Assembly (NCBI GenBank): GCA_903813345.2
Contig: CAIIXF020000001.1
Location: forward strand, 17,174,001-17,238,000
Reading direction: 5' to 3'
DNA from: Owenia fusiformis
Taxonomy: Eukaryota
DNA length: 64,000 nucleotides
In this document: positions 6,020-10,700 of the stretch, piece by piece
Numbering within the stretch: the stretch's first letter is position 1
Layout of the letters: each line of letters opens with the position of its first letter
The notes under the pieces: model-generated
What the model was told of the DNA's origin: nothing
Database searches by the model: none
Seen by the model: only the letters and a program-made list of their open reading frames with translations
Program-made: the position numbers and the translations under genes

Positions 6020-7720
6020 GTAAGTGTGCCCAAGCCATCTTTGTCACAACTTCTTGAAATGCATGGTCAATCTGAGAATGATCTAATCCAGTCTGATTCT
6101 AATACTTCTCTAACAGTTAATCCTTCATGTACAGAAAGTGCAATTCCTAATGAGCATGCTAGAGAACCTAACATAGTAATCAATGGCACCATGCTTAATA
6201 GCACTCTTAACACTCAAGAAGTAGAAAATATAGCTGATACAGAATATAATATTTCTTCAAATGAATCAAACAGTGACTTTGCTGTTGCTGTCGGTGAATC
6301 TGAGAGCAATGTCATTATTGATGAATCTGAAAATCATGATAAGTTGTCGCGTGAAGAGTTCAATGGGCTTAGGGAGTCTGGGGTATTGCCCCATTCTCAG
6401 GAGTATCATATCAGTCTTAGCCCTGAACAGAGATCACATATACTCGATTCGGGTCATCATAAGCTCAAAGGTAATCAGGAAACTAAAGTGACTGAATCCA
6501 AAAATGAAAAGGATCAAGCTGATGCAATTTTGGATGACACTGACACTCCAAACCTGTTATCTTTGGAAGAGAATGATAACCAAAACCTGGAAAGAAATAT
6601 TGCATTTGAACCAACAGATCAAACTGATATGTTGAGTGAAGACTTTGAACTGACAATGGATCCAGAAGAGGAGATGGACTATACTGATGAAGAAAATCAT
6701 CCTGATGCAAGTAGTAATGTATCAGTAGAATATGAAGAGATGGATAGTGGATTTATTACACTTGAAACATATGATGACACTAATGAAACACATATGGACC
6801 AAGATGAAGACCCATTTGATGCAGATCCATATGCAAAGGTCACAAAGAAAGCATACAAAGACTTAACTTATACTCTAGAAGACACCTTTGAAGAGAGTAC
6901 TGGAACGCCTGACTCTGATTCAAGTAGCAGATCAAGTGGATCATATGAGTTTGAACAAATTGAGGAGTTCATTAATCAATGTGAAGAGAACCACCATGAA
7001 CTTGATACTATTCTAGAAGATGAGGTCCTTACTGTTGAAGATGATCTCACCACTGAGGTGGATGAAACTGAAGGTCAAGTTGAAGACCTACATACACATG
7101 ATGTGCCATACGGAATAAGAGCTAATGAAACTTTGAATGAATATGAAGACATCAATGACGCTGATAGCGATGATGAAACAAATGATATAGCAGATCTTAG
7201 TGATAGTGCTGATGTTTATGCAGATGCTTTAGATGTCAAGTTTGAGGAGACTGATTTCCATTTTGGTCTGGCTGACCTTCAAGCAGAATATGAACAGGTT
7301 AGAGGTGATGTTGAAAAATATAAAGATGTCCAGGAAATAATTGAGAAAGATGATGATAAAGAAGACACATCTAAAAAGAAGACAGATGTGTGTATCATTG
7401 AGAGTTTTGAGGAAACAAGTCCACAAACTCCAAAAATTGATCAAAATGGATCAACTGAAGAAGGCAGCGTTAACGTGACGAGAGCAAAAATAATCAAAAG
7501 CAGACCAGCTACCTCAAATCCCCATAGAGAAAATCCTCCACCCATAAACTCCTCTTCAATGGTGTCTGTGTTTCCCGAAAGTTTTGACGTTCCAACCCTG
7601 GGCCCCCATAATCCTGCAACAACCACAATGTTTCTGTATTTTCTGTTGTACATTTTCTTTCTCTTGAATCTTTATTATTCAATCATGGACGAGATCTACT
7701 CATTCTTTTCAACAGATTGA
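6020..7720 (+). CDS. Putative alternative terminal extension of KANK (read-through of the 6020 donor): 566-aa acidic region with a C-terminal hydrophobic segment
   Basis: Frame stays open for 1701 nt past the gtaagt donor in AT-rich DNA; D/E/S/T-rich; ends [36 protein letters not shown] at 7829-7834. Confidence 0.7.
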
Positions 7721-10700
7721 TAAGATCAACACTCTATTTCATTTTTCATTTTTAGTATTTTGACTTCTAATGTAAATATATATAGCTGTATACCTTGATT
7801 TGTATATTTTACCCTTTACCCTCTGCTCAATAAAAGTAAAAATTAATTGTCTCTGTGAACTAATCAAAAGTAATTTGTGTTATTAAAGGGTCTTGTTTAG
7901 GTAACATGCGAAATGCTGGGATATGTTGCTTATACATATGTGCTGGTGCATTTACGTTGATGGATTTTAATACAATATATTTGAGATGAAAAATTAAGAT
8001 AAAATTAAGTCTGTTTTCTGTGTATATTTCTCCTCATAAATATTCCACACTCTGTGCCGAAAACAAGATCCTTTAAAATTTTATTTGTAAGATAAGTATT
8101 TATTTTTATATGTAGCTTTAAGAATACTTTATTATTTTATTCATATACAGTTGATTAATTTATTAATAATTTTGCCAAAGATGAATTTTCACATTTTAGT
8201 TTCTGTGATTTTTAATTTGTCTCACAATTTAACATTACAATGCTCGAGTGTAAAGTATATTTTTGTAAGAAAATTGCAGTGGAGTAGAATCTGTAACTGT
8301 TATTGTTAAGTAAGATTATAAGCTAGATTATCAATGTAAAATCTGGATTACACCAGTCAAGCAGCAGAGTTTGTGTCAGGTCTGATAAAAGAAAGAACAA
8401 CAAAATGAATTGTTGATAATTTTTGATTTAACTGAAAAATGTAGAATGCTCCGAGCAAAAAAGCTTTAATTAGTGTTATAATTATGGCAGCATATAACTC
8501 AAATAATATCATAATTATATTCATGTATTGATTAAACTGATTAATTAATTAATTTGATATGGTATGTCAACTGATGTTGTATAGAAATTCAAACACTTAA
8601 CAGCATGCTTGCGTCCTTGTAGATCATACATGAGTGTGTAAATATGTTCATCAAATTTGGTACAAAAATTGTATTACTACTTGTTAATATAATTTTGTAT
8701 GCAAAACAAGGTGAAAAATTGAATTAGTGATTATATAGTTTAGTTTTGAAGTGACCTAAGAATGTTCTAATGTTTCACCTGTAATAAGTTGACTCAAAAT
8801 ACATGTGAAAAATTAAAACATTTGTTCTACATATCAACTCTTAAAGGCTTGTGGCACACATTTTCCAAAAAGTCAAAAGTTAGTTAAAATGCAGTATAGC
8901 TATTGTCTGTCTGTCTGTCTGTCTGTAAGCAATAATATATGTTTTATGTCATAACCAAAGATTATAGTGCTTAGTAATGTAGAAATCTATTCTATGTACT
9001 AACCATATTTTGAGCAATGCAAGTAGAAATTACGAATCATATCATCAACAAGGAGTGGAGACATGTCAATGTACTAGTAAGTTTTGCTTCGCATTTGTTT
9101 GCAGTGACCCTTGTGTACAGTTTTACTCTGAATTTAAAAACATTTTTTGAGATTATTTTGTGATTATTAAAAATGGCGTTCCATTTCTAGTTGTTTTTCT
9201 GATGTATGCTTTAGATTGGTACAATAAGTTTTGGATTGATTTTATTTTGATGGTACACCATTCTCATTGATAATTTTAAGATATTTGTGTGGAAATGAAC
9301 TTTAGCGTTATTGGTTAACTGAAGAACATGTGTACACGAAATTGGTTGCATTTGATGAAGTTTATTTTGAAATGTTTTGTGTGTTATTTCAATTTATAGG
9401 TAATTTATGTTACCCTTCTATGATTTATAAAGATACATGCCTTATAAATCAAACATATATTGGGTACTTAAAGCAGATGGTTTTCTGTGGTATGATGCTG
9501 CACCATCTTTTGAACATTAAAGGTGATATTTCTGCATTTCATGTTGGAAAAAGTTTCATTTTTGTAACTTGAATGCTGAAATTAGAGAAAAGTGTTACAA
9601 AAAACAAAAGTTAGATGTTGATATGGGGAAATTATGTTCACTTGGCACTTATTGGGCATAATTCCCAAACTTGGAACTTTAACTTGCCTTACTGTATCAC
9701 CCTGTATGCCACTCATGCTAAAGATTAGCAAAGTGACTAAGTGGTCATCTGCCCTGACTTATGGACACTCTGTACCTGTACCACCCTGTAATCTGTGTAC
9801 GCTGCTCTTGTGACATCCTGTATTTGGTGACATGCTGTAATCTGACCCTGTAAGTGTCCTTAGCCTGATTTATAGCTGCTGCTGCACATATGCTGAAGGT
9901 TACCTGGGAAAACACTTCCTCCATTGGTTAGGGTCTTCAGTGCAATAGTTCAAGTGCAGGGGTTCATGGGAAAATCCTCCATTGAAGGGAAGTGTTAAAA
10001 AGGAGGGCCCAGTAAATATGGTTACTGGAACATCCTGCTTGGCTTGCCTGGGAGCTAGGCATGTAATAGTATCTGAAATAAGCTATTTATATTTTCTTTG
10101 TTTAAATCTTTTGTACTATTCCCTTTTCTGTTATGGGTAAAGATATAGGAATAAACTGTTATAAAGTTTATATATTGGATATGTACAGATAGGCCTTTAT
10201 TATAGTTCTTTCACAATTATTGTATTTGTCATAATTGGACTCTGATCGATTTAGATGCTAAGAACTGGAGGTATTGTACATAAGGCATATCAAAGAGGCA
10301 TTTGGAAATAAAATCTTTAACAATAAGGTGTGCATGCAATTTAATTTTGTTTCATCGTTCATTTTTTTACATTAATTTTTCACAATGCTGTTGTTATCTG
10401 ATTTTCAAGACTGCTTGTTGATAAGATCTTCACAGTTTGCTTTGTAGTGTTGCTATATTTTGTTTTTGTTTTCACTTTTTTCTTCTCATCATGGATACCT
10501 GTCATGCCATTATTATAGATAAAGACTGCTGTAGCTCAGATTAAGCATTTTTTTGTATTCCACCATATAACTTGTTTTTCAGTGTTTAATAATTTAATAA
10601 TTCTCATGTTGCATTTGTTGATTTCATCAACAGGAAAGCTTAGAATTTCAATTCAGTTACAAGAAAGGGTGAAATTTCAAGTAATGTAATGTGATTGTAT

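Follow-up and report, generated by a model that had tools for sequence, protein, structure and literature searches.

A 566-codon intronic continuation of a KANK reading frame in Owenia fusiformis is under purifying selection and may encode a tail-anchored isoform

Introduction

To our knowledge, wherever KANK proteins have been studied they are soluble scaffolds, and the family extends to invertebrates, where Drosophila Kank and C. elegans VAB-19 are members. The concave groove of the KANK ankyrin domain is the site at which KIF21A binds, as one report describes (PMC8368038). The present work concerns a 64,000-nucleotide stretch of the genome of the annelid Owenia fusiformis (assembly GCA_903813345.2, contig CAIIXF020000001.1, positions 17,174,001 to 17,238,000 of the forward strand), referred to below as the window, which on the evidence of sequence similarity holds the 3' part of the KANK gene of this species, and it concerns in particular a reading frame that continues from a KANK ankyrin exon past its 5' splice site into the following intron. 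All coordinates are positions in the window, and features lie on the plus (+) strand unless a minus strand is given.

The IgM heavy chain, which is made in a secreted and a membrane form, is the textbook case of a composite terminal exon used through intronic polyadenylation. Tail-anchored tethers and isoforms with long acidic or disordered linkers are represented by ACBD5, PTPIP51 and small ankyrin-1, and tail anchors followed by a non-basic tail go by default to the endoplasmic reticulum (ER). At the KANK locus of O. fusiformis we find that the 1.7-kb segment 6020-7720, which lacks an annotation, is no artefact but coding sequence kept by purifying selection. Its predicted product ends in a single hydrophobic segment and a short tail, a layout that makes a membrane-anchored form of KANK conceivable. 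A first-pass annotation of the window, made from the sequence alone, had proposed such a form, and we assess here how far the coding, transcript and comparative evidence carries it.

Results

A long reading frame continues from the KANK ankyrin exon into the intron

The stop-free plus-strand frame at 5819-7720 comprises 633 codons; no other open frame of the window is as long, the runners-up having 346, 280 and 277 codons. Its first 67 codons form a KANK exon (5819-6019) that is in phase 0 at both ends and encodes two ankyrin repeats ending in CDATLTDN (Pfam Ank, E = 3e-16 on residues 2-67). A search with the 633-residue frame, in which generic ankyrin proteins predominated, identified a public entry of 2150 residues, "unnamed protein product, partial [Owenia fusiformis]" (P0082), residues 2005-2071 of which are identical to this exon. 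P0082 is identical to the window through CDATLTDN and then continues with exons 11100-11198 and 11903-12745 (QTSSSSVNQQ...); the annotated protein thus splices from 6019 to 11100, and the GTAAGT at 6020-6025 (context AAT/GTAAGT at 6019/6020) is the annotated donor. RNA joints at 5491/5493 to 5817/5819 and at 6019 to 11100 delimit the exon on both sides. Residues 1855-2099 of P0082 match the human/mouse KANK1 ankyrin domain 5ybj_A with E = 1.9e-92 (phmmer against the PDB), and the precomputed Pfam assignments of the entry include the KN motif family PF12075, the motif itself being encoded upstream of the window.

Past the donor the frame stays open for 566 codons (6020-7717) up to a TGA at 7718-7720, in DNA of 37% G+C. 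Stops make up 6.65% of the plus-strand codons of the window, which gives a probability of 1.2e-17 for 566 stop-free codons, and shuffling the region 2000 times gave longest open frames of 71 codons on average and 153 at most. The extension is acidic (24.3% D+E against 5.8% K+R, with a net charge of -102 across the first 530 residues) and non-repetitive: there is no tandem repeat within 6020-7834, self-BLASTP of the extension finds no internal repeat, and tblastn and blastn inside the window find no second copy or paralogue. Pfam, run on the 633-residue frame, recognizes Ank in the exon part only and leaves the extension without a known domain. The first in-frame ATG of the extension, at 6059, has a purine at -3 and would start a product of 553 residues; the 13 codons between the donor and this ATG contain no stop and are in phase 0 with the upstream exon. 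The intron that carries the frame is 5080 nt long, the neighbouring introns measuring 574, 209 and 325 nt, and the frame occupies its first third. The first-pass annotation had ended its element at 7834, which is the last base of a possible poly(A) signal, AATAAA at 7829-7834, located 109 nt past the stop and followed by ATTAAA at 7882-7887. Such a hexamer is weak evidence of a poly(A) site; the window has 120 copies of AATAAA (1.9 per kb), and ATTAAA is present at 1.1 per kb.

The canonical next exon at 11100-11198, which is followed by the donor GTATGT and reached by the joint from 6019, encodes the last ankyrin repeat (P0082 residues 2072-2104). A form reading through the donor would have an incomplete ankyrin domain, which would break off at residue 2071 (...LTDN), 28 residues before the solved domain ends. 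On these points the first-pass annotation was accurate: it had described 566 stop-free codons in the KANK frame directly after a consensus gtaagt, a D/E-rich and non-repetitive composition, and the loss of the last ankyrin repeat on read-through.

The frame is under purifying selection

RNA-derived haplotypes differ from the window by approximately 1.5-2.3%, and these differences were read as a population test of selection. The test draws on the differences listed for three contigs, namely 16 of 16 in a contig of 1005 nt, three of five in a contig at 6154-6380 and six of nine in a contig at 7577-8158. Among the 23 listed differences that fall within 6020-7717, the third codon position accounts for 17 (binomial p = 8e-5); 14 are synonymous and nine non-synonymous, where 20% synonymous changes would be expected (p = 2.3e-5). 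When the same 23 differences are read in the other two frames, 0 and 3 of them are synonymous. The 1005-nt contig considered alone has 10 of its 16 differences at position 3 (p = 0.016). The crude ratio of non-synonymous to synonymous change (dN/dS) of the frame is approximately 0.16; the first-pass annotation had called for such a comparison in related species, and that between haplotypes of O. fusiformis itself comes out in favor of purifying selection. In the canonical exons, which served as positive control, 11 of 11 differences are synonymous. Constraint on the extension is thus weaker than on the ankyrin domain, yet the extension is far from neutral.

Insertions and deletions follow the same pattern. 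The two listed within the frame, at 6245 and 6353, are both of 3 nt, and the ten listed in the flanking intron measure 1, 1, 1, 1, 2, 1, 1, 5, 2 and 1 nt, none being a multiple of three. No difference is listed in 6020-6058, the 13 codons that join the exon to the first ATG. Because synonymous differences are in excess and the indels preserve the frame, we conclude that the frame is under purifying selection, and we are confident that at least 6059-7717 is translated at some point in the life of the animal.

RNA over the donor and the intron

RNA was examined over 4100-11975 in three stranded raw-read runs carrying the same species label (X13, X14 and X15) and in the contigs of a fourth run (X1), which was taken as RNA from its behaviour, that is, a spliced contig and an exon depth of 1443 against an intron depth of 18-60. 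The canonical joint from 6019 to 11100, with GT..AG ends, is seen in 27, 34 and 44 raw reads (105 in total) and in one X1 contig (depth 1478); the donor at 6020 is therefore real, and nearly all transcripts seen use it. Exon depth is approximately 37, 43 and 68 in X13-X15. Mean depth over the frame (6204-7781) is 0.67, 0.86 and 0.93 in the raw runs, corresponding to some 7-10 reads each, and 75 in X1; over the rest of the intron (7782-10937) it is 0.52, 0.38 and 0.14 in the raw runs and 18 in X1. Sense-strand depth is accordingly 1.3, 2.3, 6.7 and 4.1 times higher over the frame than over the rest of the intron, an excess present in all four runs, and the two bins just after the stop and the AATAAA (7782-8307) have zero depth in all three raw-read runs, few reads being involved overall.

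A useful comparison is the serine-rich alternative terminal exon at 11903-12745 (280 codons), which is used in the public annotation and is minor in the RNA examined, where depth in the bin 11727-11975 is 0.7-1.7 and no joint from 11198 to 11903 appears among the joints listed. Because this annotated exon is as poorly covered as the frame, low depth in runs X1 and X13-X15 fails to separate minor isoforms from noise. A read-through mRNA is neither established nor ruled out by the RNA, which limits it to no more than a few percent of the KANK mRNA of the samples.

The C-terminus has the layout of a tail anchor

The extension has a 19-residue hydrophobic run encoded at 7628-7684 (extension residues 537-555), with a mean Kyte-Doolittle (KD) value of 1.86, followed by an 11-residue C-terminal tail that is encoded at 7685-7717 and, as translated, contains no K or R; the first-pass annotation had pointed out both, and both stand. 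The run is the sole segment of its kind in the 566 residues, the next best 19-mer having a KD value of 0.33. By hydropathy, therefore, the extension has a single span near its C-terminus (537-555 of 566) and a short tail, and neither the extension nor P0082 has a signal peptide or an upstream span: the most hydrophobic 19-mer of P0082 (KD 1.25) lies inside an ankyrin helix, and its N-terminus, MTSSREYVEAQ..., is polar. In a single-sequence AlphaFold2 model of the 633-residue frame, residues 599-631 form the only confident helix, the 10-residue blocks covering 601-630 having mean predicted local distance difference test (pLDDT) scores of 76, 88 and 75 in a model whose mean is 41 and whose ankyrin part reaches just 44-54. 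At the hydrophobic end the list has three differences (7621, 7681 and 7690), every one of them synonymous, with 0.2 expected for each, the contig at 7577-8158 contributing six of its nine differences to the list. Hydrophobicity alone is weak evidence for an anchor, and synonymous-only differences raise it; on sequence grounds a tail anchor is plausible, and by the general rules of tail-anchor sorting its target membrane would be the ER.

Other interpretations of the extension were considered and set aside. Low pLDDT was not accepted as proof of disorder, since the ankyrin part of the same model scores only 44-54. FFAT-like and LIR-like motifs noticed by eye in the acidic region were rejected as expected in a sequence rich in D, E and aromatic residues. 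In KASH-domain proteins the C-terminal span leads into a lumenal peptide of approximately 30 residues ending in PPPX; the extension does not have this feature, its tail comprising 11 residues and no proline.

Other features of the locus

After 11198, reads continue into a small exon at 15692-15727, AFKRRKMPPSPR, which is flanked by AG and GTATGC; the loose end at 11199 that leads there is supported by 47 X15 reads and one X1 contig with an agreement of 1.0, and this exon is the sole continuation from 11198 among the loose ends listed. It is absent from P0082, and the public KANK model may therefore use a minor 3' end, the serine-rich exon, instead of exon 15692. The serine-rich exon, in which the partial entry P0082 ends, contains a 27-nt tandem repeat of 14.8 copies at 11980-12372 that encodes SSGSSSFGQ-type units.

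Within the intron that carries the frame, a minor cryptic exon at approximately 8834-9076 on the plus strand, with a donor GTAAGT at 9077, is joined to 11100 in one X1 contig of depth 59.5 and two X13 reads; with stops in all three frames upstream of it, it probably acts as a poison exon or else as an alternative 5' exon. A short G/T-rich repeat at 10938-11030, just upstream of the last ankyrin exon, draws a very large number of reads that match in part, with a depth of 54,021 in X1 and hundreds of loose ends, and is therefore taken to be a dispersed, highly expressed repeat unrelated to KANK.

Further upstream, the plus-strand exon starting at 4260 is joined by two different exons, the annotated one (...AEGTVGG) and another ending in ...ATGTTTGATCAAAACATTAGAGAAAC, which lies outside the window and is supported by 39 reads in X14 and 76 in X15 with an agreement of 1.0. 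The exon ending in ATGTTTGATCAAAACATTAGAGAAAC may be an alternative first exon, giving a short KANK whose start lies immediately ahead of the ankyrin domain. The joint from 5070/5071 to 5281 occurs in two forms, one with clean GT..AG ends and one with an extra T between the two sides (12, 3 and 12 reads and an X1 contig), probably an allelic difference at the exon end. Elsewhere in the window, long minus-strand frames at 32915-33748, 55028-56068 and 53510-54043 resemble exons of membrane proteins, among them a putative two-span protein and a putative solute-carrier/OATP-like transporter.

Discussion

A proposed read-through product

We give roughly even chances to the proposal that 6020-7720 is a lineage-restricted composite terminal exon of KANK whose product is fused to the ankyrin domain and tail-anchored. 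In the normal route, the GTAAGT at 6020 is spliced to 11100 and the last ankyrin repeat is added. In a small minority of transcripts, or in cell types or stages outside the samples, the donor would go unused; translation would read on through 566 in-frame codons, and a poly(A) site soon after the stop at 7720 would terminate the mRNA. The resulting protein would carry the KN motif, the coiled coils and all ankyrin repeats but the last, then approximately 530 acidic and probably disordered residues, and finally one C-terminal hydrophobic helix with an 11-residue non-basic tail, which is the layout of a tail-anchored protein. Insertion would be post-translational, into the ER membrane by default, and the KANK part would remain cytosolic on a long flexible spacer. 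Such a read-through form is most likely rare or tissue-specific.

Several properties of the locus support a composite exon. The intron is long (5080 nt against 209-574 nt) and filled by the frame in its first third, the frame running past a 5' splice site to a stop within the intron; the gene has other alternative 3' ends, namely the serine-rich exon and exon 15692; and RNA depth over the frame exceeds that over the rest of the intron in four of four runs, the bins after the stop being empty in the raw runs. Read-through is also the simplest route to translation of the frame, because it is continuous with the exon in phase 0 and has no stop before its ATG, an arrangement that a nested gene would reach only by luck of approximately 1/3 x 0.41 = 0.14.

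Other observations weigh against this proposal. In the RNA, the frame reaches only 1.4-2.0% of exon depth in X13-X15 and 5% in X1; among the rows listed for the four runs, no read or contig crosses 6019/6020 unspliced, no joint leads into the frame, and no clustered molecule ends or poly(A) end are found. The depth of the bin 5941-6203 is wholly accounted for by its 79 exonic bases. One X1 contig spans 7577-8158, past the stop and both hexamers, at an intron-like depth, and an X1 haplotype with 7831 T>C and 7832 A>G destroys the AATAAA. Nascent pre-mRNA is commonly richer at the 5' end of a long intron, and unspliced pre-mRNA could account for all RNA over the frame. The donors of composite terminal exons are usually weak, and that at 6020 is a strong consensus; the read-through form is, moreover, absent from the public annotation. 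The selection test, for its part, rests on the listed differences, which comprise three of the five in the contig at 6154-6380 and six of the nine in that at 7577-8158. The isoform of the first-pass annotation therefore holds in part: the frame is real coding sequence, as its length, its 14 synonymous differences out of 23 and its in-frame indels attest, and no molecule of the corresponding mRNA is among the rows listed for the four runs, in all of which the donor is canonically spliced.

Comparative searches weigh in the same direction. When the 566 residues were searched with phmmer against a collection of 1.84e9 representative proteins, which includes annelid, mollusc, brachiopod and nemertean proteomes, 0 matches were obtained at E<=0.001. 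No usable match was found in the ESM Atlas for the whole extension or for residues 400-566; a scan of JGI metagenome contigs matched 170 patterns, none of which was confirmed as a homologue of the extension; and phmmer of the extension against 220 fetched proteins found nothing. A hydrophobic C-terminus is present in none of 48 KANK orthologues collected with one motif and none of 43 collected with another, these sets being drawn only from the best 120 matches of 1182-3763 residues. The 48 orthologues end 57-100 residues past the fourth-repeat motif, with the last repeat present. A titles-level literature search found no membrane-anchored KANK, no KANK intronic polyadenylation and no report of this isoform. 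The extension looks like a young, lineage-restricted coding sequence.

Alternative explanations

The coding evidence is silent on the upstream partner of the frame, since all listed differences lie downstream of 6059, and the main rival reading, which accounts for the coding constraint just as well, is that the frame is coding without being fused to KANK, as an orphan acidic tail-anchored protein initiated at ATG 6059 from a start of its own or after an unseen splice. The purine at -3 of that ATG and the lack of any unspliced read over 6019/6020 in the RNA rows listed would fit such a protein, and the chance of in-frame continuity by luck, at approximately 0.14, is not negligible. Yet no transcript start, joint or depth step is listed in 6020-6200, the few reads over the frame share the strand of KANK, and phase continuity together with the missing stop favours read-through by approximately 7 to 1; we therefore consider a non-fused product unlikely. 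A different possibility accepts the read-through and questions the anchor, the hydrophobic end being merely T-rich and the protein a truncated KANK, soluble or unstable, that carries an acidic tail. Over its last 101 bases, stop included, the frame is indeed 45% T against 33% in the window; 55 of 807 random window frames of 35-199 codons (6.8%) end equally hydrophobic over their last 35 residues, which counts against an anchor; and the run, of moderate KD value, holds four Tyr, one Asn and one Ser. Against a chance origin, the segment is the only hydrophobic one in the extension and is located exactly where a tail anchor requires it, 11 residues from the end; it is also the sole confident helix of the AlphaFold2 model, and the three differences listed in 7621-7690 are synonymous, six of the nine in that contig being listed. 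A soluble product is in our estimate distinctly unlikely.

A functionless relic, either a former terminal exon or an inserted coding sequence now seen just as intronic pre-mRNA, would agree with an RNA depth at or near the intron level and with the lack of annotation and of homologues. A dead frame, however, would not stay open for 566 codons in DNA of 37% G+C, nor would its differences be restricted to synonymous sites (p = 2e-5) and its indels to lengths divisible by three, and we regard a relic as highly improbable.

Implications

The public gene model misses a 1.7-kb coding segment, and should the product prove separate from KANK, an orphan gene under purifying selection would still lie at the locus without annotation. 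If the fused product is made, an intron would have yielded a long, selectively kept coding extension that relocates a conserved cytoskeletal adaptor, and the locus would provide a concrete case of a lineage-specific tail-anchored isoform. The broader claim, that this annelid evolved and keeps under selection a membrane-anchored KANK in which donor skipping swaps the last ankyrin repeat for approximately 530 acidic residues and a tail anchor, is one that we put forward tentatively and hold to be doubtful. Were it true, the adhesion and cortical microtubule machinery would be tied to the ER or another organelle in particular cells, and a coding extension born de novo within an intron would have supplied a new way of making a contact between cortex and organelle.

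Comparison with known systems

The host gene belongs to the KANK family, as known from vertebrate KANK1-4, by its KN motif and its KANK-type ankyrin domain, and the proposed form would differ from them in having that domain cut at residue 2071 and followed by 566 unrelated residues. In its predicted layout of a cytosolic module, a long spacer, a C-terminal span and a short tail, the proposed form would be similar to ACBD5, PTPIP51 and small ankyrin-1, from which it differs in that the extension has no sequence similarity to them (0 matches). With respect to the IgM composite exon, the differences are that the membrane form proposed for KANK would be the read-through form and would carry a tail anchor rather than a type I span, and that the KANK donor is a strong consensus and its poly(A) site putative; the likeness is that a choice between splicing and reading on would give two C-termini, one of them membrane-bound. 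Both classes of mechanism, C-termini set by splicing or reading on and tail-anchored isoforms of soluble adaptors, are known, and for KANK they would be new.

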